A stretch of 64,000 nucleotides of DNA from Mobula hypostoma (lineage: Eukaryota): positions 5,828,001-5,892,000 of the forward strand of contig NC_086097.1 in assembly GCF_963921235.1 (NCBI RefSeq). The letters are read 5' to 3'. The notes under the pieces were generated by a model. It searched no databases, was not told the origin of the DNA, and was given only the letters and a program-made list of their open reading frames with translations. Within the stretch, counting starts at the first letter, position 1, and every line of letters starts with the position of its first letter. Shown one piece after another: positions 4,845 through 61,636 of the stretch. The translations under genes were made by a program, and so were the position numbers.

Positions 4845-7380
4845 TCAGATAGCCGAAATTTTTTTTATTGAATTGGTTCTCAAGAACCTAAGTTTCTCCA
4901 TCTGTATGACTGAGATCATATCAGCCATCCATCTCCGAAAGAAAGGGGGAGAGGGTGATTTCCATTCCCTCAAGATAAGTCTTTGGGCAGCAATCATCCC
5001 CAGCATCAGAGACTGTTGTATGGCTGCAGGGGAACAAATAGTAGATTGCGAGCAGCTAAATATAACGAGACCAGCTTCCAAGGGGAAGGATCTTTCAGAG
5101 GCCTTTGAATAGCAGTCGAATACTTTGGACCAAAATCCGGTCAGTAATGGGCAAAGCCAAAAGGTGTGTGATAACGTGGCTTCTATCCCTTGGCATCTAT
5201 CACACATTGGCGAGACAGAAGGGTAAATCCTGTGCAACCTAAGTTTAGAGTAATGGAGACGGTGGACAACTTTAAACTGGATCAGTTGGTGCCTGCTGTC
5301 AACAGAGCAAGCCTGTATCATAGACAAACACTTGTCCCAGGCAGCTTCAGATAATTCAATGTCCAACTCCTCTCTCCAGGCGTCTCTAATCTTCACATTA
5401 GATGCTACAGTGCAATTATCAAACAAACGTACAATCATAGAAACAAGATGCCTGGAGTCAGGAGGGTTCTTAAAAATATCAAAAAAACATATGTTTCCTT
5501 GGAAGGATTTCAAAATTACAAATCTTAGATTGAATGTAGTGTCTAATTTGTAAATAACGCAAAAAGTGCGAATGAGGCAGCTCTCAGATTTCTCGTTCAG
5601 CAGAGTAAATGTTGCAAACCATCCCTCTATATACAGGTCTTCAATAGAAACTAGACCCTTCTCCCTCCAAGCATGGTAGGTTTTATCTGACCATGAGGGT
5701 AGAAAGGAGTGATTGAAACAGATTGGTGTTTGTACAGAGGTCTCTGGTAAACTCAGAACGCTCCTAATCTGATTTAGAATTCTGATAGAATTTTTCAAAA
5801 CAAAACTCAAGCTTTTTGAAGTCCCAGGCTTCTCTAACTTGTAGAACAGCATGGCTGGCAAGGAGGAATTGACAACAGAGTTAGACTCCATACATAGCCC
5901 AGGGGCTAGGTTATCCGGAGCCCCGTGTTGCCAGAACATTAAAGCCCTAGCATTGACAGCCCAATAATAGTTTCTAAATACAGGTAATCCCAGCCCTCCT
6001 TCAGACTTGGGCCTTTGTAAATGAATTTTCGAGATTCTGTGATTCTTATAATTCCAGATAGAAGACAATATTATGGAGTCCAACTCTTTAAAGAAAGCTG
6101 ATGTAAGAAAAATGGGGAGATTTTGACAAAGGTAGAGAAACCTAGGAAGGGAAACCATTTTAATTGAATTTATACGACCAATCATGGACAGAGGTAGGGT
6201 TTTCTGGAATTATAAGACTCACAGGACCTCTGAACTGCCGCACCAAGACCTCCTCAGGCTTGTCCCCAATTTCGAAATGCTCTTGTCTTAATTTTAAGAG
6301 GAGATTATTTATTTGACGACCCAAGATACAGTTGTACTCATATTTAAGCTTCATTATTTTATTATAGTCTTCAGAGGATTTCGAAGCCTGGTATGTCACT
6401 TCGAGGGTTGGGAGCGTATTCTCAATCTCTAATAATCGCCCTTCTCTCTCCCTCTTAGCAGTGGATTCATATGAAATTATATACCCACGAATTACAACTC
6501 TTAATGTCTCCCAGAGTGTGGAATCTGACACCTCGCCGTTATCTTTACTTTCTTTCTTTTAATCTGGTGGTGATATATTCTATAATTTTCTTATCGGTGA
6601 TTAGGGAGGGGTTAAAACACCAGGAATAGATTCATTTGGAAAGGGAGAGGTTTAGGGACATTGTCAAGGGGCTATGGTCAGAAATTAATCTATATATGAT
6701 ATTTTGTATTGGTAACACCAGATATTAAATGAGAGTCAATCAAAAATAGTCTATTCTACTATAAGATTTGTGAACATGAGAATAATAAGAATAATCCTTG
6801 TCGGTGGGATGTTGAACTCGCCAAATATCTACTAAATTCCTAGATCTAATCAAATTATTTAGGACTTGCACTGACATGATATTTGAGGGCGGGCGGGAGG
6901 ACAATCTATCTAAGTATGGATCCAGGTAGCAATTCAAGTCACTGCTGATTATTATATTTGAATTACTGGCATCCGGAAGTAAATCAAAAACTTTCCTAAA
7001 AAAAATTTGGCTCGTCTGTGTTTGGACCATAAATATTAAGGGAAGGTTAGCGGAAACGAATTAATGGTGCCAGAGATCATAATAAACCTGCCGAGAGGAT
7101 CTGTGGTCATGGAAGTGAGTTGAAATGGAATATTTTTCCTAAAGAGGATAGCCACACCATGGGCATGAGAAGTAAATGGTGACTGTTAAATCTGCGATAT
7201 ACAGCTAGACCTCAATCTGTGTTGCTCAGTTACTTTGATATGAGTTTCCTGTAGAAAAATCACATCTGCAGATAGCGATTTGAGATGTCTAAAAACTTAA
7301 TCCCTCTTAACAACATGACCAAGACCCTTTATATTCCTCGAGACTATTGTAATATCTTTACCCCCCAGCTGCGTTCTACC
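4845..7380 (-). pseudogene. L1 ORF2 remnant (endonuclease and C-terminal domain, RT missing)
   Basis: The EN region has stops and frameshifts. The linker ..GDKPEEVLVRQFRG joins near 6215-6228 directly to KTLPLSMIGRINSIKM, which normally lies downstream of the RT. Confidence 0.85.
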
Positions 7381-7913
7381 GCAAGGCCTCTGCATATGAG
7401 AATAAAAAAGAGATTATTAGAGTTGAGCACAAACATAGTAAACAATGCAAAATGGTTGGCAGCCTCATAAGAACACAATATACACAAAAAAAATGTCTGA
7501 GCTATAAACAAAAACAACACACACCCTAACCCACCCCCCTTCATGTCTCCCTAAACCAGACACATAGTTCCCCATTTCCATCCCAAAAGGAGCTGCTGGG
7601 CAGGTAACTAACATTACACAATTATCACAAACCCCCTCTCCGAGAAAATTTATTACACAAGTTATATAATACCGTTAACTAAATGCTATTAGGGCTGGGG
7701 AGAGTTATCCAGTGTCCGCACCTGAAGCTGAACATTCATGACATCAACTCAAATTTAACCCTTATAATAACAAAAATATTTAGAACATTTTCTGAAATTA
7801 AATCCCAGTGCGGCATATAGCATTGCAAAACTACATATAACAAGCCAGTCCCTCCCCATATCCCAACATGGAAACCGGCACAAATATAAGCTAATTAAAC
7901 AGTGTCAATATCT

Positions 7914-8804
7914 CTACTCCCTTTTTCGTGCATCATTCCTTTCCAAGAATTGTGCTGCTTCTATCAGGTCATCGTATACTTTAGGCTCTCTTCCATCTTG
8001 ATGATAAATATAGAGCCTAGCCGGATACCGCAGGGTGTGCTTGATTCCTCCATCGCGCAGAGTTTGCAGTACATCACGAAAGGTACGACGTTGAGTCATC
8101 ACCTCTTTAGTATAGTCCGGGAAGATCAAGACCTTACTTCCCTTGTACTCCATGGGTTGTAGTCTGCTGCGGCGCAGGATCAGCTCTTTCACTTGAAAGT
8201 GATGGATACGTGCCAAAATGGTACACGGTTTCCCGCCGGCAGCCGACTTCGGATAGAGAGAGCGATGTGCACGATCCACTTTAACCGGATACGGGAAATG
8301 CTCTTCCTCGAGCAACTTGGGAATCAGTCTGGAAACAAATTCAGCAGGTTTACCATCCTCCTCGCCCTCTTGTATCCCTACAATCTTAATGTTATGTCTC
8401 CGGGAACGAGCCTCTAAGTCATGGACTTTAGCTTCAAGCTGGCTATTTTGTCTCATTAGCTCTGAATACTTAACTTCAAACTCTTGCACGCGTGTTTCAA
8501 GGTCACTTGTGGTGAGTTCTTGATTAGCCACACGGGCTTGTAAGTCAGCCTGGGAGGCTACAAGCGCCTCAAACTTGGTCTCAAAAACATCAAAGCGGTC
8601 GTTAATGCCGTGCAGAACTGACTCAGAAATCTCCTGACCTAATTCTTTGCACATGGCGTAAGTTTTATCCGGTGGTATCTCAGACGCCGAGAAGTTCTTT
8701 ACCGACCCATTGTTAGCACTAAATTCGGTAGTTTGGCAGTCGGCGGTATTGGTTTTATTTGCCTTCGGCATTGTCAAACTTTTCCAGACACTTAATTTAG
8801 ACAT
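7914..8804 (-). CDS. L1 ORF1p (coiled coil plus RRM/CTD, RNA-binding)
   Basis: Uninterrupted ORF. First ATG at 8804, alternative at 8771; the track start at 8834 is a GTG. Motifs DLEARSRRHNIKIVGI, VDRAHRS, VLIFPDYT and LRYPARL are typical of L1 ORF1p. Confidence 0.88.
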   Translation of the reverse strand: MSKLSVWKSLTMPKANKTNTADCQTTEFSANNGSVKNFSASEIPPDKTYAMCKELGQEISESVLHGINDRFDVFETKFEALVASQADLQARVANQELTTSDLETRVQEFEVKYSELMRQNSQLEAKVHDLEARSRRHNIKIVGIQEGEEDGKPAEFVSRLIPKLLEEEHFPYPVKVDRAHRSLYPKSAAGGKPCTILARIHHFQVKELILRRSRLQPMEYKGSKVLIFPDYTKEVMTQRRTFRDVLQTLRDGGIKHTLRYPARLYIYHQDGREPKVYDDLIEAAQFLERNDARKRE

Positions 8805-11800
8805 ACACTGTTGACCTATGAATAAATAAAACACGGTATAATAGTAATTTTACCGAGGCCTCGGAGAGGAGCACTGACCTTTCACGTCTAATCCATACGC
8901 TGCGCACTAGCGCCTCCCGTTCTGGGACTGTTCTCACTGGAGTTTAGAAAAATGAGGAGGGATTTCATTGAAATCTATCAAATACTGAAAGCTCTGGATA
9001 AAGTGGATGTGGAGAGGATGTTTCCTATAGTGGGGGGTAGGGTCTGGAACTAGAGGGCACAGCCTCAGAATTAAGAAGCATCCATTTAAAACAGAGATGA
9101 GGAACATACCTTTGGTCAGAGGGTAGTGAATCTGTGGAATTCATTGGCACAGATGGCTGTGGAGGCCATGTCAAGTATATTTAAGGCAAAGTCAGATAGG
9201 TTCTTGATTAATCAGGACATCAAAGGTTACAGGGAAAAGGCAGGGGAATAGAGTTGAGAGGGATAATAAATCAGCCATGATGGAATAGCAGAGCAGATTT
9301 AGTGGGCTGAATGGCCTCGTTCTTCTACTAGGTCTTATGGTCTTATATTGCTATCTAGCCTCCTTTCAGCAGACAAATTGGATACTTGTAGCTCTCTATC
9401 ATTACATCGAAGCAATGAATTGCAAACAGCCCAACACTGATTCTTGTAGCATGTCTAAAGCAGCAGTCTCCTTCTTGAAGGAACCATTAACTCCTGCACT
9501 TTCTTTTATCTGTTCTTCAACCTTTAGCTCCCTCACTGTCATGTTGAGGAATATTATGAAGCCACAGATTCTCCAATATTGGGCACTTCTCCATTTCTGA
9601 CAATGGGTCATTGACCTGAAACATGAACTCTGTTTCTTTCTTCACAGACATTGCCTGAGTATCTCCAGCACATTTTGTTTTTATTAGACTGCGAGAGAAA
9701 GGCCATCTTGATGTTGAGAAGGAAATGTAGTTTGAAGCTACCTTGAGGTGAAAGGCAAAACGAGTTTGTGAAAAGTTTAGCTGAATGTCACACAGATAAT
9801 ACTCACTGCGACATCAGTGGTAATGTTATGAGCTTTATAACTTTTATACCATGCTTTTCTTAGGGAAGTTTCAAGAAAAAGATCATTCAGACTTATTACC
9901 ACATTTTGAAAAGCACAGTTCCACAACCTTATTGACCTCTGAGCAAGTTCACATACCAGGAGGATTAAGATGCACAGCTTCTCTTTAACTGTCTGATCTG
10001 CTGCCTGACACAATGTGCTACAAGATGTTCAATCAAGATCTAGACAGCTCATCATTCTATCAAGGCTGATAAGCAGATACAACCCGTGGTTTATTTATTT
10101 ATTGAGATGTGGCTCAGAGTAGGCCTTTCCAGTCCACCTATTTAATACTAGCCTAATCATGGACAATTTATGCAGGTCATGCCTTGTTTTTGTTGCTAAT
10201 ATCAGGGAAGGGTACAGACACACATTCAACAATTAAGGAACAGCATCTTCCCCTCTGCCTTCAGAATGGACATTAAACACATGAACACTACCTCACTACT
10301 TTTTTTTTGCACTACTTATTTCATTTAACTATTAAATACATGTACTCTTACTGTTATTTACAGTGTTATTTTCTATTATTATGTATTGCATTGTACTGCT
10401 GCTGCAAAGACAAATGGTGTGACATTTGCCGGAGATATTAAACCTGATTCTGATTCGATTTATAATGACCAAATATAATGCGGTACGTCTTTGGATTGTG
10501 GGAGGAAACTGGAGCACCCGGAGGAAATCCATGCAGTCACAGAGAGAACGTACAAACACACAGCAGCAGGAACTGAATCAGAATCGCTGGTACTGTAAAG
10601 CGTTGTGCTAACTACTACATTACCATTATGTTCCATCATCCATGTAGTTTAAATGAGTTATTTCATAGTCATCATTATATCAAATGTAACTTATAACTGC
10701 AGACAGCGTCCCAATTGCATGTGATGAATTAAGTTTCAGTGGGCTCCAGTTAAGTGAGTGTGATTTTAGAACAAACAATCACAATACATATAAGCAAAGC
10801 TTCCTGGTTTAGTTCTATTTTCACTGTCCATTTTAAAACTCTCTGTCATCTGTCTCCTGTTTTCATTGGCCTCCTTAACAAGACTCAAGATTCAAAATTG
10901 TTTAATGTTATTTCCAGTATAAAGGAGAACAATGTAATTGTTACTCTGGATTTGATCAGCACAAACAAAAACACAATAGGTATAAATACATAAGATACCA
11001 TATATATGTAAACTGATTTTATGTCCATAAAATGACACTCGGCACAGGAGTGTCTGTACATAAGGTGACTGACAGGAGATGATAAAGTAGTGGTGGTTGG
11101 AGATGTGGAGGGGTGGGTTGATGGGTGGGGGTGTTGATCAGCCTTACTACTCATGGAAAATAACTGTTTTTGTATCTGGTGGTCCAGGTCTGGATACTAT
11201 GTAATCTCCTCAGTAATGGGAGTGGGACAAACAGTCCATGAGCTGAGTGGATGGGATCCGTCATAACGTTACTGACCTTCTTTTCCGGCACCTTTCTGTA
11301 TATATGCCCCTGATGGTGGTTAAGCTGGTGCTAGTGATACTTTGGACAGTTTTGACTACCCATTATAGAGTAGAGCCTTCCCGCATCCACTGCATTGCGT
11401 TGAACGCATATCCCCTTGAAATGCTCCTCGGTACTGGCAGGGTAAGTTTCATAGATAAGCTAGGCAATGACACCTCCCAATAATGTTCACCACTTACGTC
11501 ACCCTGTTCTCTTCATTCTTCTTGTGCTGGATCAGATCCGGACTAACAATTATTTTGTTCTACTTTACACTCGTTACTGGAAATGACTTTAAACAACCTT
11601 GAATCTGGAATTCAGGTTGGAGATGAAAAAGAGGCTTCTCAGTATATGCTTGTAGGAAAGTTGTGTGTGAATGTGGCTTTGCCATAAGGACTTGTATCCC
11701 ACAATTCTTTACATAAAGGTCACTTATAAAATCTTGTAAGGATCAATGAGTTGCCTAAGGTGTAAAATAGCTTTTACTGGTTTGTGTGAGGGCTATCAAA

Positions 11801-11929: not shown

Positions 11930-12575
11930 TGGGCATCACGGTAGTGTCACAGTTAGCACAATGCTATTACTGCCTGGGGTGTTGGAGTTCAGAGTTCAAT
12001 TCCAACATCATCTTTATGGAGTCTGTACATCCTCCTCATGGAATGTGTGGGTTTCCTCTGGGTCCTCCCGTTTCTTTCCACAGTCCAAAGTTCGTAGGCT
12101 AATTGTGATTATCCTGTGACTAGGCTCGGGTTATCCTGTGACTAGGCTCGGGTTATACGGTGACTAGGCTCGGGTTATCCGGTGACTAGGCTCGGGTTAT
12201 ACGGTGACTAGGCTCGGGTTATCCTGTGACTAGGCTCGGGTTATCGGGTGGCTAGGCTCGGGTTATACGGTGACTAGGCTCGGGTTATCCGGTGACTAGG
12301 CTCGGGTTATACAGTGACTAGGCTCGGGTTATCCTGTGACTAGGCTCGGGTTATACGGTGACTAGGCTCGGGTTATCCTGTGGCTAGGCTCGGGTTATCC
12401 TGTGACTAGGCTCGGGTTATACGGTGACTAGGCTCGGGTTATCCTGTGACTAGGCTCGGGTTATCGGGTGGCTAGGCTCGGGTTATACGGTGACTAGGCT
12501 CGGGTTATACGGGGGTTGCTGAGCAGAGTGGCTTGTTGAGCTGAAATAGCCTGTTCCACCCTGTATTTTTAAACG
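11930..12575 (+). mobile_element. SINE (recurrent family) carrying an internal minisatellite
   Basis: ggtagtgtcacagttagcacaatgctattac...ggagttcagagttcaattcc...gggtttcctctgggtcctcc; related copies at ~23518-23800, ~40945-41240 and, reversed, ~10100-10630. Confidence 0.7.
12109..12510. repeat. 22-bp minisatellite (taggctcgggttatcctgtgac), about 18 units
   Basis: Directly visible tandem array with ttatcct/ttatacg/ttatccg variants. Confidence 0.97.
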
Positions 12576-19817: not shown

Positions 19818-20500
19818 TATAAGGGGTTTCTTCTGTTACGTTATAATCAAAATGGCTTCTTTGTTATGTTAAATGCTGAGAAAGTTCTCTTGCCAGCAGC
19901 TTGTTTGGGTTATATTATTGATAAGAGAGCGTATGAACCAATTGGGTGTCCATGTTATTCCTTCTTGTGTGTCTGTAAGCTGTTGTATGCGCGGGTTTTT
20001 GGGGAGAAGGCGCGATGGAGAGAGAGAGAGAGAATGGACAAGGTGCTGTGATGCTGGTTAATGGGGTTGGACCCCAAGCAGGAGTCCGAGGTCCAGGGTC
20101 TTCGGTGAGGAGAGGAGACAAAGACATACTCGTGTGGAGCATCTGGTCGACCACCGTGGGTGATCCCAGGCGGCGGGACAAAGTGGTCAGAGGGGATCGA
20201 ACGGTGAAGCAAGGATCGTTACTAGAGCTCCAACTGTTGTGCGCGAAGAGATTGAACTTTGATAAGTGTGGCGCCTTTTACTTTTCTTTTATATTTTATC
20301 TCTATTAATCATATAGTTCCAGTAATATCTATAAACTGTAATTCATTTAATCATATATGGTGTATTGTCTGTTATTTGGGCGGGGTGGGGTACATCAAAC
20401 AGCATCCACACAAACTTAATTACCCAGTTTGGCGGGGCCGAGGGCTGTTTCCCTAGATGACAGCAAGTTGAGCGAACCTGAGGCTTGCCAGGGGGCTACA
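19818..20500 (+). mobile_element. Solo LTR (Gypsy-like)
   Basis: Ends gggggctaca; begins tataagggg (probably decayed from tgta); flanked by tata at 19814-19817 and 20501-20504. Its 3' half resembles the LTRs at 54963-55735 and 61637-62417. Confidence 0.65.
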
Positions 20501-20642
20501 TATAGTTATAACAAATTACTTACACTTGGAATATTAATTCAATTCAAGTTTAGTTCGTCATTCAACCATACATGACTTATGAATATAGCCAAATGAGATG
20601 GCGTTACTCCGGGGCCAAGGTGTAAAACACAGTACCAACAGT

Positions 20643-22445
20643 CACACACAGCACAGAACACACATAGCACAGTCCTGATACACACATAGTACAGTCCTGA
20701 TACACACACAGCACAGAACACACACAGCACAGTCCTGATACACACACAGCACAGTCCTGATACACACACAGCACAGTCCTGATACACACATAGCACAGTC
20801 CTGATACACACACAGCACAGTCCTGATACACACATAGCACAGTCCTGATACACACACAGCACAGTCCTGATACACACATAGTACAGTCCTGATACACACA
20901 CAGCACAGAACACACACAGCACAGTCCTGATACACACACAGCACAGTCCTGATACACACACAGCACAGTCCTGATACACACATAGCACAGTCCTGATACA
21001 CACACAGCACAGTCCTGATACACACATAGCACAGTCCTGATACACACACAGCACAGTCCTGATACACACATAGCACAGTCCTGATACACACACAGCACAG
21101 TCCTGATACACACATAGCACAGTCCTGATACACACACAGCACAGTCCTGATACACACATAGCACAGTCCTGATACACACACAGCACAGTCCTGATACACA
21201 CATAGTACAGTCCTGATACACACACAGCACAGTCCTGATACACACACAGCACAGTCCTGATACACACATAGTACAGTCCTGATACACACACAGCACAGAA
21301 CACACACAGCACAGTCCTGATACACACACAGCACAGAACACACACAGCACAGTTCTGATACACACATAGTACAGTCCTGATACACACATAGTACAGTCCT
21401 GATACACACACAGCACAGTCCTGATACACACACAGCACAGAACACACACAGCACGGTCCTGATACACACATAGTACAGTCCTGATACACACATAGCACAG
21501 TCCTGATACACACATAGCACAGTCCTGATACACACATAGTACAGTCCTGATACACACACAGCAAAGTCCTGATACACACATAGCACAGTCCTGATACACA
21601 CATAGTACAGTCCTGATACACACACAGCACAGTCCTGATACACACATAGTACAGTCCTGATACACACACAGCACAGTCCTGATACACACATAGCATAGTC
21701 CTGATACACACACAGCACAGAACACACACAGCACAGTCCTGATACACACATAGCACAGTCCTGATACACACATAGTACAGTCCTGATACACACACAGCAA
21801 AGTCCTGATACACACATAGCACAGTCCTGATACACACATAGCACAGTCCTGATACACACATAGTACAGTCCTGATACACACACAGCACAGTCCTGATACA
21901 CACACAGCACAGAACACACATAGCACAGTCCTGATACACACACAGCACAGTCCTGATACACACACAGCACAGTCCTGATACACACACAGCACAGAACACA
22001 CACAGCACAGTCCTGATACACACATAGTACAGTCCTGATACACACATAGCACAGTCCTGATACACACATAGCATAGTCCTGATACACACACAGCACAGTC
22101 CTGATACACACATAGTACAGTCCTGATACACACATAGCACAGTCCTGATACACACACAGCACAGTCCTGATACACACATAGTACAGTCCTGATACACACA
22201 TAGCATAGTCCTGATACACACATAGTACAGTCCTGATACACACACAGCAAAGTCCTGATACACACATAGCACAGTCCTGATACACACATAGTACAGTCCT
22301 GATACACACACAGCACAGTCCTGATACACACACAGCACAGAACACACATAGCACAGTCCTGATACACACACAGCACAGTCCTGATACACACACAGCACAG
22401 AACACACATAGCACAGTCCTGATACACACATAACACAGTCCTGAT
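20643..22445. repeat. About 1.8-kb minisatellite, 22-bp unit agtcctgatacacacacagcac with a 16-bp variant agaacacacacagcac
   Basis: Directly visible, roughly 80 units; runs without a break into the Penelope pLTR at 22436. Confidence 0.98.
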
Positions 22446-22567
22446 GAAGGGTTCCGGCCCGAAATGTTGACTGATCGTTTCCACGGATGCTGCCCGACCT
22501 GCTGAGTTCCTCCAGCTTGTAGTGAGTGTTGCTTTGACCCCAGCATCTGCAGAGTATTTTGTGTTTA
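22436..22567 (+). mobile_element. Penelope-like pLTR fragment beginning at a hammerhead motif
   Basis: cagtcCTGATGAagggttccggcccGAAAtgttgactg..gctgcccgacctgctgagttcctccagc..; candidate TSD acacagcaca at 20646-20655 and 22569-22578. Confidence 0.85.
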
Positions 22568-23800
22568 TACACAGCACATAAAAGGTAGAAAGTGCATGTA
22601 AGATGTCAGTAAAATACAGCCACACAAAAAGTAGTCCAGATCCTGAGTCCATGAATGCCGCAGAAATCTGCAGTCGACCACAGCACAACTTGTTTTCTGC
22701 TGAGTGAACACTGGAGGGCAGCACCAACTTCAGTCGAGCTGCTGCCCCTTTGGAATACATGAGCTTTGATGGTTTAATTACAGTATATTAACAAAGTTTG
22801 GCAGGAGGGGCAAGGAAAGAGGATGGGGCTTTGGTTTGGAGGACAGTGAGGGATCCCCAATACAGGAGGGGAGGGGATTGAGACAGAGGATGAGTCTGCA
22901 GCCTCCTTACTACCCTGCTGTGGGGTCCACCATCTGCCCCAACTACCTCCCATTGTTTAGGCCCAATACCCTTCATCAGGACTCACCCTGCATTTATGCA
23001 TGTTGCTAAAGGCTTCCAGTGGCGTTTTTTTTTGTGCGTGTTGCTCAAGATTACCAGCATCTGCAGAATTTCTAGTGTTAGGGAAAAATTAAATTAGCCA
23101 AGTTTCTTGTGACAATGAAACGCCATTGGCAACAGGGGAACTGAGACACATATAAGGCTTCCTCCTACAATTTCCACTCTAGGCTAGTCTGGAACATATG
23201 GTAATTAAATTACCAATTCACCAGTTGCCTCAGAAAGAAGTCTAGAGTTTTCTGATGCAGAAAGAATTGGAAACTGGTGAACTGAACAGGAGAGAGAGCA
23301 TCCTGAATGGGAAGAGTGAATATATAAGCTTTTATAACAGATGAATGTTGATCCCTTAAAGAAAGTAAAAGAACACAGTTTCAAAACAATTTACTTTTTT
23401 TGCATTGATGAAGCAATCTCAGATATTTCCTGATGAATATTGTCCAGTTATGGTTGAAGGGGTGATCTTAAGGATGTCATTAGGGTGAAGCTTACAATAT
23501 GTGATGAAGGTGACTATCCATGGTAGAGTAGCCGTTAGACAGCACTACTGCAGTTAAGGGCGTTGGAGTTCAGAGTTCAATTCTGGAAACGTCTGTAAAG
23601 AGTTTGTACGTCCTTCCTGTGAGCCAGTGGGCTTTCTCCAGGATGCAGCTTCCACCCATATTTCAAAGATTTACCGGTTAGTAGAGTCATTGATTGCTGT
23701 ACGTTTTCCTGTGACTAGGCTAGTGTTGAGTGGCTGGGTCACTGGATGGTGCAGCTCAGCAGGCCAGAAGAGCCTGTTTAAGCTGTATCTTCAAACAAAA

Positions 23801-40214: not shown

Positions 40215-41944
40215 GATCTGCAACAACCAACCTATTTAACAGTAGTCTAACCACAGGACAATCTACAGTGACAAATTAACCTACTATCTGGTATGTATTT
40301 GCATATTTGAAGAGGAGGTTGATAGTTTCTTGATTAGTAAGGTCGTCAAAGGTTATGGGGAGAAGGCTGGAGAATGGGGTTGAGAGGGATAATAAATCAG
40401 CCATGATGGAATGATGGTGCAGACTCAATGGGCTGAATGGCCTAATTCTGCTGCTACGTCTTTTGGTCTATTAAGGAACATAAACAACTTAAAGAACAAA
40501 ACCACAAGGGTGCTAACACGTGCATGAAGATGGAGGATTTAGGTAAGGATCCAAATGAATATCTTATGCTGTCTGGACTAAAGGAGTGAGTTGATATTGG
40601 AGTAAAGTCGGGCAATCTGGATTGGATGATCAAAGTAAAGGAGCAGATGTTATGGAATCTAGCATTTCTTCTTGTGGATAAAACTTAGATGAAATATATC
40701 TCAAGCCATTAAAAGAAACAAGAAAGAAATTTTTGGACTGCAATTTTTCAATTCTAGAATGGTGCCAGAGAACTAGACTGCAGCTAACATGGTACTGATA
40801 TTAACAAAAATTAAACCAAATAATTGTAGGCCAATTAATTTAATATTGATATTGGTAACAGTTTTAGAATCAATTCTAAAGCATAGCATCAAACTTTGTT
40901 TAGAAATCTTCGTTTAGAATTGTATAAACCTTTGTTCAGGTACCTCAGTAGCAGTGCATTAAGTGTGATGCTATTACAGCTCGGGGCATCGGAGCTTGGA
41001 GATCAATTCTAGCACCATCTGTAAGAAGTTCCCACATCCTTCCCATGGGCATGTGGATTTCCTACAGGTGCTCTGTTTGCCTCTCACAGTTGAAAGATGT
41101 ACTGGTTAGTGGGTTAATTGGTCATTGTAAATTGTCCTATGGTTAGGATAGGGTTAAACGAGAGGGTTGCTGGGTGGTGTGACTTGTTTGGCAGGAAGAG
41201 CCTGTTCCAGGCTGTATCGCTAAATAAAATTAAAATTAATGCGTCATTGAACCAGGGACAGGCAGCAGGGATTATTTAAAAGGAAGATCAAGTCTAATTA
41301 CAGGAATTTTTGAGGAGGTGACAAAGAAGATTGATGAAGACAATGATATAGTCTGCAGGGATTTTAGAAGGATTTTGATAAGGTCAAGGAAAAGGTAGCT
41401 GTTGACAGGTGTTTTCATTTGTAGAAAAATATTATCAGGCCCTCAGAGCTTGTACTTAGTCGCTTGTTCTTAAAAATGCACATTGAAGATTTAGACTCAA
41501 ATGTATAAATCAGCTATGAAACAATACTGCAGATGTCTGATCGTGAACAAAGAAGTTTTCAGATTATAAAAGGTAGGAGAAGAGTTAGGCCATTTGGCCC
41601 ATCGAGGCTGCTCTAGCATTTCATCATGGCTGATCCATTTCCCTCTCTGCTTCAGTCTGCTGCCTTCTCCCTGTAACCTTCATGCCCTTACTAATCAAGA
41701 ATCTAGCAATCACTTCCTTAAGTATACCCAATGGCCCCCACAGCCACCTGTTTCATCACTCTCTGGCTAAAGAATCACCTCCTCATCTCTGTTCTAAATG
41801 GGTGCCCCTTTATTCTGAAGCTGTGTACTTTGGCAATCGACTCTCCTACACCTACTCTATCGACAGTTTTGAATAAGATCCTGTCATTCTTCTGATCTTC
41901 AGTGAGTACAGGCCAGATCCATTTGGTTTATACTGCTGCGAGAT

Positions 41945-43070: not shown

Positions 43071-43607
43071 ACCCCACCTATATAACCCACCTATATAACC
43101 CACCTATATAACCCACCTATATAACTCACCTATATAACCCACCAATATAACCCACCTATATAACTCACCTATATAACCCACCTATATAACCCACCTATAT
43201 AACCCACCTATATAACTCACCTATATAACCCACCTATATAACCCACCTATATAACCCACCTATATAACCCACCTATATAACTCACCTATATAACCCACCT
43301 ATATAACTCACCTATATAACTCACCTATATAACCCACCTATATAACCCACCTATATAACTCACCTATATAACCCACCTATACAACTCACTTATATAACCC
43401 ACCTATATAACCCACCTATATAACCCACCTATATAACTCACCTATATAACCCACCTATATAACCCACCTATATAACTCACCTATATAACCCACCTGTATA
43501 ACTCACCTATATAACCCACTTATATAACCCACCTATATAACCCACCTATATAACTCACCTACATAACCCACCTATATAACTCACCTATATAACCCACCTA
43601 TATAACT
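43071..43607. repeat. 13-bp minisatellite (acccacctatata / actcacctatata), about 41 units, inside a minus-strand SINE
   Basis: Directly visible; flanked by SINE sequence (aggcctttctggctc..; ctagcctaatctcaggataattta). Confidence 0.97.
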
Positions 43608-48706: not shown

Positions 48707-49270
48707 GTAACACAAAATAATCTGCAGATGCTGTTGTCAAAGGAACACTCACAATGTGATGGAGGAACTTAGCAGGTCAGTCAGCATCAGTTGAAAAGAT
48801 TAGTCGACATTTCGGGCCAAAACCCTTCGTCAGGACTGAAGGAAGAACTTTGGGGAGGGTTTGAAGAATGCTGGTAGTTGAAGAAACAGCAATTCAAAAG
48901 ACAGAGGGGTGGGGGAGGGGAAGCAGGGAGGTGATTGGCAGGAGAACAATGCGCAGTAGTAGAAGGAGGCGGAACTATGAGGGAGGTGATGTGAAATAGG
49001 GATAGAGGAAGGGAGGGGGAGGGAATTACCGGAAGTTGGAGAATTCTATGTTCATACCAAGGGGCTGGAGACTACCTAGATGGTATATGAGGTCTTGCTC
49101 CTCCAACCTGAGTTTAGCCTCATCATGGCAGTAGAGGAGGCCATGTATGGACATATCTGAATGGGAATGGGAAGCAGTCCTGACGAAGGGTTTTGGCCCG
49201 AAACGTCGACTAATCTTTTCAACTGATGCTGACTGACCTGCTGAGTTCCTCCAGCGCATTGTGAGTGTTC
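48707..49270. mobile_element. Penelope-like insertion with inverted pLTRs
   Basis: 13-bp TSD cactgtgtccatc (48694-48706, 49270-49282); ~48743-48838 is the reverse complement of ~49175-49270; GIY-YIG C-terminus (LEEQDLIYHLGSLQPLGMNIEF) on the minus strand. Confidence 0.92.
49176..49211 (+). ncRNA. Minimal hammerhead ribozyme motif (Penelope type)
   Basis: agtc-CTGACGA-a-ggg-ttttgg-ccc-GAAA-c-GTC-gact: stem I agtc/gact, stem II ggg/ccc, conserved core, GUC cleavage triplet, palindromic ACGT in place of a full stem III. Confidence 0.75.
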
Positions 49271-52200
49271 ACTGTGTCCATCAGTGGTCCAGTTTCTTGT
49301 AGCTATCTTATTGGGTGTCCGCTTGTCTTCTCAGCTCCTTGCTGATTCATTTGGCTACTGGCCGAACACTTTATTTTGTACTTTCCACCGTAGATCTAGT
49401 TTCAGGAGATCTGTGTGAGATCTCAGGTTCCTGTCATGAACAACACTGCAGCTGTTTGATTTGTCGTCGCACGAATAAAGTTGTGATACACAAAAAGGAA
49501 ATTGTCCACTTTATGCTGTAGAGAAATATCATCTGCGTCCATAGCTTTAATGAACTTCTTAAAGTATTGGATAAATGATTCAGTTAACCCTTTCATTGCT
49601 GGGTGGTGAGCAACTGACTTGAAATGTCTGATGCCATTTTTCTTCATGAACAGCTGGAATTCTTCTGATATGTATTGTGGTCCGTTATCACTCACAATTT
49701 GTTCTGGCAAGCCATAGCTGGTGATGTTAGTCCTCAGGGTGAAGACAGTCTTTGCTGAGGTGGTTAATTTTTTTTAGATTCATTTACGGGATGTGGACAT
49801 CGTCAGCTAAGCCAGTATTTATTGTCCATCCCTAGTTGCCCTTGAGAAGGTGATGATGATCTGATTTCTTGTACTGCTGATTCCGTGAGGTGTAGGAACA
49901 CCCAGAGTGCTGTTAGGGAGGAAGTTCCATTATTTTGACACTGTGACAATGAAGGAACGGCGATATGTTTCCAAGTCAGAATGGTGAGTGACTTGTAGGG
50001 GGATTTCCAAGTGGTGGTGTTCCCAGGTATCTGATGTTCTTCTCCTTCTAGGTGGTAGTGATCAGGGTTCTGGAAGGTGCTGCCTTAGGAACTTTGATGT
50101 GTTGTAGCAGTGCATCTTCACTGTTATACCAACTTCACTGGTGTGACCTCTGGCCACGTTGAATGAGCATCCACAGCAATCAGGAACATCGAGTTCATGA
50201 GTGGCCCAGTCAATATGTACTCTTTACCATGGGGAAGACAGCCATTCCCATGGGTGTAACAGTGCCTGTGGGGGTGCATCTTGAAATTTTTGGCATCCCG
50301 AACAGCTTTTGGCCAAGTCTTTAACCTGCTTATCGACTCCTGGCCACCACAAGTAGCTCTGTGTGAGACTCTAACCCTTGACTGTACCCAGTTGACCTTC
50401 ATGCAGATTCTCTAACACGCTGGTGAGTGGGTGAGAGGGAACCACAGTGCAAAATCTACACATCAGCGTTCTTCGACATACCAACTGTTGGTCTCATCTT
50501 GCTGAGAACTCTGGAAACATAGGCCATCCTTACGTGGTGATTTCATAGACTTTTGACAACGTTGAGTCATTCCTTGTTTCTCTTTGTATTTCAGAATTTT
50601 ATTATTAGCAACTGGTCCACCAGTACTGTGTGGAACACTTCTGCTGGGCCACAGTGTGAAGACTTCTGGTCTTCAGTTGCCAATAGTGGAAGTTGTGACA
50701 AACCATCATCACTGCGGTGTTGTTTGGTATCCTTGAACTTTATGTCACAAGAGTCACTCCGGATAGTGCGGTGTTTTAACCAGGTGGCAGTCATTAACTG
50801 GAATTCCCTTCCTGGGATTTAAAATGGACACAAGGGGCTAGTGATCTGTCACTAGCGTAAACTTTTGTCTGTAGAGGAAGTGGTGGAACTTCTTTATTCC
50901 CCATACTAGACCAAGGGCCTCTCGGTCAATCTGTGCATAGAACGTGTTCTGCGCTCGTCAGTGATCTAGACGCAAATGCAATCAGACGTTCAGATCCATT
51001 TTTCATAGTGTGTGACAAAATGGTTCCAATGCCATAAGGGGACACATCTAGCACCAGTCTAATGAGCAGTGATGGGTCATAATGGGTGAGCAGTTCATCT
51101 GATGTTATTAGTCTCTCTGTTTCCTTAAATGCTCTTTCACATCTTTCTGGCCAGTCCCACCTTATTCCAGTCTGCTACAGTGTGTTCAATGGGTGCAGTC
51201 CCGTAGCAATGTTGGGGAGAAACTGGTGGTGGAAATTTACCAGGCCCAAGTATGACCTGAGTTGTGATACATTTTCCAGTTTGAGTGCCTGTAGCACTGT
51301 TTCAATCTTCTCTTTTGACAAATCAATCTATGGAACCCTCTCCCTGCCTGCCAAAGATGCAAAAATGTCTTTTATTCATGCCAGGGGATACTGCACGGTA
51401 TGCAGCTCACTTTGAAATCCCCACATTTGCAAATGGCCCTGGTCTTCCCTTTCTTGATCACCAGGACAATGGGCATGACCCAAATGCTCCACTCAACCCT
51501 GGAGAGAATTCCAAGTGCCTCCAATCTCTGAATTTCATCATCCATTTTAGGACACTGAAGTGTAAGGCACAGGACGGACTTTATGGAATCTTGGTGTTGC
51601 TGCTTCATTCAGTTCAGTTCTGGCCTTCATGCCTTTGAGTTTACTGATACCTTTCTCAAACACCTTCTCATTAGCATTAAACAGCTGTGACAGTCTCTGG
51701 TTAGTGCTACCATTTGGGCTGCAATTGTCTATTGATTTCACACTGAGAGCTTTGATTGAGTTCTAGTCTAGTTGGATTTTTCTTGTCCGAAAAGGGCTGG
51801 CCCTCCACTTTTCAATACATAAAGATCTAACTGTTGTGTTTGGCCTCCATATGACAAATTTACTTTCAGTTTGCCTTGTGGAGGGGGGTGGGAGGTACTA
51901 TTTCACCTGTGTAGGTCTTTAGCATCACTGAGATCTTCTCTAATGGTATTTTAGAAAGTCTGTGGCACTAAAGACCTACACAGGCAAAATAGTGTTTCCC
52001 AAAGGCAAACTGAAAGTAAATGTGACATCTGAGGTCAACCACAGCAGTTAGAGATTTATGACAACAGATCAATGCCAATGCGTAGACAACAGATCATACA
52101 TTGTGCTAACAGGAGTTATTGCTCTAAATGAAATAAATCCATATATTACAGATAACGTTGGAACTGAATGCCAAACTCTGACACCCCGAGCTTTACTAGC

Positions 52201-59819: not shown

Positions 59820-60736
59820 CAAACACAAAATAATCTGCAGATGCTGGCGTCAAAGCAACACTCACGGCACGCTGGAGGAACTCAGCAGGTCGGGCAGCAT
59901 CCGTGGAAACGATGAGTCAACGTTTCGGACTGGAACCCTTCATCAGGACTGTAGAGGGAAGGGGTAGAGGGAAGGGGCAGAGGCCCTATACAGAAGGTGG
60001 GGGGAGGGTGGGAAGGAGAAGGCTGGTAGGTTCCAGCTGAAAAACCAGTAAGGGGAAAGATAAGGTGGTGGGGGAAGGGAGGCAGGGAGGTGATAGGCAG
60101 GAAAGGTGAAGAAAGAATAGGGGAAAACACAATGGGTAGTAGAAGGAGGCGGAACCATGAGGAAGGTGATAGGCAGCTGGCGGAGGGGGCAGAGTGAAAT
60201 AGGGATAGGGGAAGGGAGGGGGAGGGAATTACCGGAAGTTGGAGAATTCTATGTTCATACCAAGGGGCTGGAGACTACCTAGACGGTATATGAGGTGTTG
60301 CTCCTCCAACCTGAGTTTAGCCTCATCATGGCAGTAGAGGAGGCCATGTATGGACATATCTGAATGGGAGTAGGAAGCAGAGTTGAAGTGGGTGGCTACT
60401 GGGAGATCCTGTCTCTTTTGGCGGACGGAGCGGAAGTGCTCGATGAAGCGGTCTCCCAATCTGCGTCGGGTTTCACTGATGTAGAGGAGGCCGCACCAGG
60501 AGCACCGGATGCAATAGATGACCCCAACAGACTCACAAGTGAAGTGTTGCCTCACCTGGAAGGACTGTTTGGGGCCCTGATTGGTGGCAAGAGAGGAGGT
60601 GTAGGGACAGGTGTAGCACTTGCACTTACAGGGATAAGTGCCGGCTGGGAGATCCGTGGGGAGGGACGTGTGGACCAGGGAGTTGCGGAGGGACCGATCC
60701 CTGCGGAAAGCGGAGAGGTGTGGAGAGGGAAACATG
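59820..60736 (-). mobile_element. 5'-truncated Penelope-like element
   Basis: 13-bp TSD ttctatagacatg (59807-59819, 60737-60749); hammerhead motif at 59914-59951 (minus strand). Confidence 0.92.
60229..60735 (-). CDS. Penelope GIY-YIG endonuclease domain (partial ORF)
   Basis: CKCKCYTC..FTCESVGVIYCIRCSWCGLLYISETRRRLGDRFIEH..VATHF..LEEQHLI..LQPLGMN; open for 168 codons but 5'-truncated. Confidence 0.8.
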   Translation of the reverse strand: MFPSPHLSAFRRDRSLRNSLVHTSLPTDLPAGTYPCKCKCYTCPYTSSLATNQGPKQSFQVRQHFTCESVGVIYCIRCSWCGLLYISETRRRLGDRFIEHFRSVRQKRQDLPVATHFNSASYSHSDMSIHGLLYCHDEAKLRLEEQHLIYRLGSLQPLGMNIEFSNFR

Positions 60737-61636
60737 TTCTATAGACATGTGGTGGAAATTGAGCTGACTAGCTGCATTACAGCCTAATATGGGAACACCG
60801 ATGTCTTTGAGTGGAAAATCCTACAAATTGTATTGAATTCTGCCCAGTACATCACCTTTGAGCATATCTACGTGAAGTATTGCCACAGAAAAGGAGTGTC
60901 CGTCATCAAAGATCCTCATCACCAAGGCCATGCTCTTTTCTCAATGCTGTCATCAGGTAGAAGGTACAAGAGCCTTAGTGTTCACACCACCATGTTCAAG
61001 AACACTAACTATCCCTCAACCATCAGGCTCTTTAACAAAAGGGGATAACTACACTCATTTAAGAACTTTGTTATACAATTATTTCATGCAATTTATTTAT
61101 ATCAACATTTACAGTTTGTTGACAGCTTACAGTTTCTGATGTTTACAGTTTACAGTTACTATTCTATAGATTTGCTAAGTATGCCTGCACAAAAAGTGTC
61201 TCAGTGTTGTTTGTGGTAGCATGTACGTACTCTGAAAATAAAATCTACTTTGAACTTCAAACTTTATTAGAGTGACTGAGGACACCATTAGAGGTTGAAG
61301 ATGTTCAGCAGCACCTGAAGGGGGCAGGGTGACTGGAGCTGCAAGAAGGTACAAGTAATAGACAGGGGAGGTGTCCTCTAGTAGACAGGAAAGGGTACAA
61401 GGAATGTCTGAAGCTGGAGAAGCTGGAGATGAGGTAAGGAGGTTTCCGAAAGTCAGAAATCCCCTAACTTGGCTGACAGAAGATGCATCTGGGAAACTGA
61501 GTGTTATGTCCATTCCCATTTACAAATGGATTGGGGAGTCATGAAATCATGGAATTCATTGAAATACTATGCTCTTAGTAATGGATTAATTAGTTTCAAA
61601 GTCATGAGGACTTGATTATTTTTGGTGGGGGGAGTA

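Follow-up and report, generated by a model that had tools for sequence, protein, structure and literature searches.

The tandem array at 20654-22435 of the 64,000-nucleotide stretch of DNA analysed here (the window) is a minisatellite whose unit is, judged from its letters, a chimera of the 5' end of a Penelope stub and the local target DNA. We think it probable that the whole path to this array, including a first duplication that followed the insertion, ran at the DNA level and produced a minisatellite derived from a transposable element (TE). The bulk of the array is very probably younger than the insertion. Both parents of the unit, the Penelope 5' end and a host repeat, can still be read together with the block duplications, and this makes the locus an unusually legible case of minisatellite birth. 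The array itself is probably neutral.

Retroelement fragments are numerous in the window, which consists of repeat-rich animal DNA. A broken L1/Tx1-like remnant lies at 4845-8849 on the minus strand (a frame resembling ORF1, and the C-terminus of an ORF2 in which zf-RVT matches weakly, E 0.0035). A near-perfect hairpin at 51904-51986, present on both strands, scores 32.8 bits for mir-1245 against a gathering score of 79 and is probably a short inverted repeat.

The array and the Penelope stub

The following features were annotated at the array and in the family of the stub.

20654-22435, plus strand: minisatellite of 84 units, of which 73 measure 22 bp and 11 measure 16 bp; native host DNA forms the first of the 16-bp units
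22436-22566 (131 bp), plus strand: 5'-truncated Penelope pLTR stub starting at hammerhead stem I, 93% identical over 130 bp to 59950-59821 on the minus strand
22436-22473, plus strand: minimal type I hammerhead motif (stem I, CUGAUGA, stem II, GAAA), from motif scan and fold prediction
22531-22566, plus strand: optional 36-bp Penelope 'tail', from the 3' ends of other copies
60232-60738, minus strand: part of a Penelope ORF with its C-terminal GIY-YIG region, lying upstream of the pLTR copy closest to the stub, from homology to P0010

TRF reported a period of 22 with 84 copies at 20658-22445 and 88% matches. Splitting the array at the unit starts gave 84 units over 1,782 bp (20654-22435), followed directly by the stub from 22436. 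A previous sequence-only reading of the window had described about 80 copies of a 22-bp unit over some 1.8 kb, the last of which runs straight into the stub, and both points are borne out. The same reading gave every unit as the first ten letters of the pLTR joined to one fixed target sequence. This holds for 34 of the 84 units, but not for 39 variants of 22 bp and the 11 units of 16 bp.

Three 22-bp types with 34, 16 and 14 copies make up 64 of the 84 units and differ at positions 18 and 21 only, while rarer 22-bp variants account for 9 units. T at position 21 is found in 17 units, all of which have T at position 18 too. Sixteen of the 22 positions are invariant, and with three singleton variants in 1,782 bp the units are very uniform. 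Twelve letters of the 22-bp unit belong to the host, and the 11 units of 16 bp carry no Penelope letters at all and equal host DNA. The 10-mer CAGTCCTGAT has 67 occurrences in the window against an expectation of 0.29, a count reached in 0 of 100 shuffles; the array holds 65 of them, the start of the stub one and the closest family copy one. By this count there is no 22-bp unit to the right of the stub in the window. The long C/V-rich open reading frames across the minus strand of the array were rejected as genes and are by-products of a stop-free repeat. A scan of metagenome contigs for the junction pattern of the array gave no match.

The stub is assigned to Penelope because a 93% identical copy adjoins a GIY-YIG ORF, and because of the optional 36-bp tail. 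This closest copy (59950-59821, minus strand) is preceded by a pyrimidine-rich UTR and, further upstream, by the ORF at 60232-60738, which over 170 aa matches residues 720-887 of P0010 at 44% identity; P0010 is an 889-aa protein with RVT_1 and GIY-YIG. Pfam gave no family in the ORF by itself; its identity comes from homologues, and the closest named ones are stingray proteins at 71-84% identity, so the DNA is probably that of a ray. No RT part of the stub's family was identified in the window. The UTR directly upstream of the closest copy's hammerhead also contains a 13-bp unit in 2.5 copies (59951-59983).

Comparison of the family copies places the 3' end of the family at 22566. Among 12 other family matches, five end at query 129-130 and three at query 94, giving clusters 35-36 bp apart, and this spacing agrees with the optional 30-40-bp tail of Penelope (PMC8557442; the available part of PMC11167929). 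Four of the nine hammerhead-bearing copies begin at stem I, which is therefore an ordinary 5' boundary for this family. Upstream of stem I a pyrimidine-rich UTR (fraction 0.73-0.84) is found in five of the nine copies, without the host half of the unit. The element part of the unit is single in all eight copies other than the stub, and in none of these, three of which also start at stem I, are the first ten letters repeated within 200 bp upstream; this is a small local sample. Two further structures were seen in the family: a 5'-truncated minus-strand copy joined head-to-head to an inverted pLTR whose start coincides exactly with that of stem I (48709-49269), and a similar opposed Penelope pair at 382-596.

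The hammerhead of the stub is predicted to fold with stems I and II at -12.3 kcal/mol (z -2.05; 7 of 200 shuffles were as good) and carries a C-to-T change after GAAA. For the closest family copy the fold was no better than shuffles (z +1.09), and Rfam gave no hammerhead match in the window at E<=5. The earlier description of the array unit as a hammerhead half goes too far: of about 38 nt it has 10, made up of the 5' arm of stem I plus five letters of the core, and G8, A9, stem II and GAAA are missing. Mutation of G8 abolishes cleavage in an anole element (PMC11167929, in part). As the unit stops before G8 and A9, the units are not expected to be ribozymes. Four array units folded worse than shuffles (z +1.84), and the core motif scan matched the stub only and none of the units. 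The array is thus predicted to have no ribozyme function. We also considered it as a non-LTR retrozyme and rejected this, as no unit has a complete type I hammerhead. Hammerhead-core scans of viral, genome and metagenome contigs gave no match.

The host repeat and the related species

Contigs of four runs were compared on positions 20380-20713 only: X1 (organism A), and X8, X5 and X6 (one sample of organism B). Runs X9-X13 (shares 0.05-0.07) were left out of the contig comparison. X1 is possibly the window's own source and does not count as independent support. The comparison and the sequence gave the following features around the insertion.

20536-20671, no strand assigned: left part of a host interspersed repeat; contig depth climbs from bin 20536 onwards and is highest at 20632-20643 in each of the four runs, with many paralogous contigs
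20644-20655, plus strand: AC-rich repeat 1, native to the host; in each run 122-174 contigs match up to 20655 and continue into a related second repeat
20656-20671, plus strand: native host repeat 2, source of the 16-bp units; 39-48 contigs per run match up to 20671 and then resemble the right flank
20662-20671, plus strand: likely left copy of the target site duplication (TSD), the last 10 bp of host repeat 2, from host paralogs
22569-22578, plus strand: right TSD copy, which may extend to 22567, from the sequence and the family 3' end at 22566
22579-22600, no strand assigned: the host repeat resumes; 8 of the first 10 letters equal the consensus of the loose paralog ends behind 20671

The host repeat has a high copy number, and we take it to be a LINE/SINE-like 3' end in reverse. 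Just to the left of it, at about 19835-20500, lies a high-copy repeat with TG...CA ends by eye and very high contig depth up to about 20500, which is presumably LTR-like.

Since the host paralogs carry both AC-rich repeats, 20644-20655 and 20656-20671 are native and the insertion point lies after 20671. Contigs matching up to 20655 go on with a noisy consensus that resembles the second AC-rich repeat. The TSD had earlier been placed at 20646-20655 and 22569-22578. These two 10-mers are indeed identical, but the left one lies in native host repeat 1 and is probably misplaced. The pair is likely 20662-20671 and 22569-22578 with one mismatch in 10, a C/T difference by which the two commonest unit types also differ from each other. 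The position of the array inside the target duplication, on the 5' side of the stub, is supported, and the family copies and host paralogs agree with a unit made of the stub's 5' end and the local target. At the start of the pLTR 10-mer, two or three letters could come from host or element alike (ACA microhomology). The available part of PMC3846280 describes Penelope TSDs of 8-10 bp and joints with microhomology.

An existing minisatellite, to whose end the stub was joined by a chance 10-bp match, is a very improbable source of the array. CAGTC does precede host repeat 1, as this explanation would have it. Against this, the paralog consensus behind both 20655 and 20671 is without the CTGAT letters, the 22-bp unit is absent to the right of the stub, and stem I, where the element part begins, is a usual 5' boundary of the family (4 of 9 copies).

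Among the paralogous contigs, 12 of the matches listed (10 distinct) jump back over 20622-20673 with non-Penelope letters in between, so this host segment duplicates by itself, without Penelope. The AC-rich 20622-20673 is duplicated in tandem in other host copies of X1, X5, X6 and X8, and may found a minisatellite family of its own. Relative to the host peak, depth at 20680-20703 is about 3-5 times higher in X1 than in X8, X5 and X6; as summed contig depth is not a copy number, this ratio was set aside.

In organism B the orthologous left flank was found at 20510-20630 (X5) and 20510-20636 (X6), with no substitutions and a 3-bp insertion. One X8 contig (depth 5.11) reads up to 20701 and then goes back 44 bp to 20658; the shorter side of this joint has 36 letters. 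The contig implies at least three tandem element 10-mers at a likeness of at least 88%, and it is a single contig that is not anchored to the flank. Its tandem joint is absent from X5 and X6, which are of the same organism B sample. This one contig suggests that the related species carries an array, a short one at the least, which may then be older than the species split and cannot be dated after the insertion. Neither an orthologue with a single junction unit nor an empty orthologous site was seen in the contigs of the four runs.

No listed contig spans 20380-20713 and the interior of the array lies outside the contig comparison, which would fit an assembly artefact making up the array or most of its length. 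Set against this are the ordered and linked variants, the collinearity of both flanks with the host family, and the tandem joint seen in a run with another organism label. We therefore hold an artefact to be extremely improbable.

Block structure and growth of the array

Two blocks of units recur in the array, as seen from the unit order.

20670-21053, plus strand: 9-unit block of 192 bp, twice in tandem (20670-20861 = 20862-21053)
21844-21969 and 22272-22397, plus strand: two copies of a 6-unit block of 126 bp

Positions within repeated 5-unit words numbered 26, against 3.28 +/- 2.91 in shuffled arrays (0 of 2000 as high), and those within repeated 6-unit words 20, against 0.78 (0 of 2000). 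The longest repeated run was 9 units compared with 5.11 after shuffling (2 of 400). Individual variants also keep their neighbours, here as plain counts. All three AAG-starting units come after the commonest unit, itself after a unit with T at position 21; all three TAG-starting units come after one and the same unit type; and all ten internal 16-bp units come after a unit with a repeat-1-like tail. Variants inherited in blocks with their neighbours point to the copying of DNA segments and not to independent rounds on one RNA template. The earlier suggestion of later slippage or unequal exchange fits this pattern.

The sequence-only reading had offered, as the other branch, a telomerase-like reiterative synthesis in which the Penelope RT wrote the array during integration. 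The RTs of Penelope-like elements (PLEs) are the closest eukaryotic relatives of TERT (PMC12632851, PMC8557442; both in part), and units with only three singletons in 1,782 bp would suit such synthesis. Repeat addition by telomerase or DRT10, as described in the available part of PMC12632851, needs the unit on an RNA template in an A-B-A' pattern. Here host DNA makes up 12 of the 22 letters and is missing upstream of stem I from the family copies compared, so that the element RNA would not template the whole unit, 11 units are without element letters, and the variants travel in multi-unit blocks. In the accessible text of an in vitro study of a Penelope protein, cleavage and internal priming are reported and repeat addition is not (PMC11167929). 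On these grounds telomerase-like synthesis has to be regarded as exceedingly unlikely. Later turnover could, for its part, mask or erase the signature of an early homogeneous array made at integration.

The array may also have been seeded at integration and expanded later. The host 3' end would have copied 8-10 letters of the cDNA, fallen back onto the target and re-primed, so that two or a few units were left, with ordinary turnover doing the rest. Seeding at second-strand priming or end-joining is consistent with a unit that spans the joint exactly, an array inside the TSD, the ACA microhomology at the joint, the AT of the unit, which equals the first two letters of the right flank, and a short array possibly common to organism B. 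Target duplications of 16-27 nt are also found at R1 5' junctions (PMC2718515, in part). The route through AT would, on the other hand, give an 18-bp unit and not one of 22 bp, the host segment duplicates without Penelope, and none of the eight other copies, a small sample, shows even one junction repeat. We consider seeding possible but unlikely.

If Penelope integration seeded minisatellites in general, stem-I-truncated stubs, which are abundant here, would be a recurring source of chimeric minisatellites and a record of an integration step. The more general proposal that Penelope integration seeds minisatellites, with 5'-end joining at stem-I cDNA ends sometimes stuttering and the few copies later expanding, seems to us decidedly improbable, and the corresponding claim of Penelope as a satellite generator found no support in the small local sample (0 of 8 other copies). 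The later steps of Penelope integration are called not yet validated in the available part of PMC11167929, and junction duplications would matter more if they were enriched at young Penelope 5' ends.

Growth at the DNA level after the insertion, which we prefer, would have proceeded in four steps. The stem-I-truncated, tail-ended pLTR stub sits, as the host paralogs indicate, in the second native AC-rich repeat of an older host element. Its arrival would have been by target-primed reverse transcription, with about 10 bp of target duplicated and a microhomology of 3 bp (ACA) where its 5' end was joined. A later slip in this duplication-prone tract would then have copied 22 bp over the joint, i.e. 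host repeat 2 and the first 8-10 letters of the element. Finally, misalignment with host repeats 1 and 2 would have given the C/T variant at position 18 and the 16-bp units, whose pattern can be read in the array, and a few point mutations would have arisen and spread with their neighbours via slippage, unequal exchange or conversion until the array numbered 84 units. This account does not explain the first slip, since no direct repeat flanks the first duplication in the register of the left flank. Known initiation models explain only 6% of cases, and retrotransposition has been suggested as a trigger of repeats (PMC3389668, in part). The stub has two or three private substitutions in 131 bp and the array three singletons in 1,782 bp; the former are possibly subfamily differences, which makes the comparison weak for dating.

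Two other minisatellites in the window served as controls. They were found by TRF and repeat comparison.

12109-12512, strand not given: 22-bp unit, 18 units, inside a SINE-like repeat
43073-43606, strand opposite to that of 12109-12512: 13-bp unit, 41 units, inside a repeat of the same family

Both lie at nearly the same place of a family that we assume to be SINE-like, and the family copies at 23515-23790 and 40971-41218 have no array there. Neither control showed an excess of blocks over shuffles, so they are controls for an origin inside repeats and not for the block pattern. In terms of the family sequence, the array at 43073-43606 sits beside the segment whose amplification is seen at 12.1 kb, and the family may have a slippage hot spot here.

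Comparison with known systems

We found no description of a Penelope junction array in the literature searched, outside of which lay supplements and most subscription papers. The sources compared below were available in part, and likenesses and differences refer to those parts.

EN+ Penelope-like elements (Poseidon PAc, PMC11167929; A. vaga Penelope, PMC3846280; PMC8557442) share with the stub the 5' truncation, the pLTR hammerhead and the optional 30-40-bp tail, as well as microhomology at the 5' joint and, in other copies, inverted pLTRs; the likely TSD pair would also agree with their TSDs of 8-10 bp. Only a 131-bp stub is present here, and the available parts of these reports do not describe a junction array.

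Non-LTR retrozymes and hammerhead satellites (bioRxiv 10.64898/2026.07.22.740005) are similar in being tandem repeats from PLE terminal sequence with local amplification; satellites of this kind in newt, cricket and schistosome are cited in PMC5680766. A retrozyme unit has a whole type I hammerhead, whereas the array unit has 10 letters of it, is predicted not to cleave and shows no sign of mobility.

Telomerase and DRT10 (PMC12632851) also make short uniform tandem repeats, and in both settings these stand beside an element with a TERT-related RT. In those systems the RNA carries the complete unit as A-B-A', next to a boundary stem, while over half of the present unit is target DNA. R1 in Drosophila (PMC2718515) duplicates 16-27 nt of target at its 5' junction, in the described cases as one extra copy tied to upstream 28S in the transcript; here there is a long array.

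The closest likeness is to TE-derived minisatellites (Ahmed & Liang 2012, PMC3389668; PMC9659126), in which a short piece of a TE forms head-to-tail copies on the spot, variant units are interspersed among them and the array grows through local duplications. According to PMC3389668, TE-derived tandem repeats are common and grow with time, and 23% of human mini/satellites are TE-derived; the Alu-derived minisatellites of Jurka & Gentles and mouse Ms6-hm/Hm-2 are cases cited in PMC3389668/PMC9659126. The present array likewise has head-to-tail units within about 10-100 bp with interspersed variants, and its unit is homologous to TE sequence that is single in other copies, with a host part native to the paralogs. 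In the cases cited in the available text the unit lies within one element. Here it spans the joint of element and target, half Penelope and half host repeat. The formation of a TE-derived minisatellite is a known process, and the junction-spanning unit is the one distinctive trait of this array.
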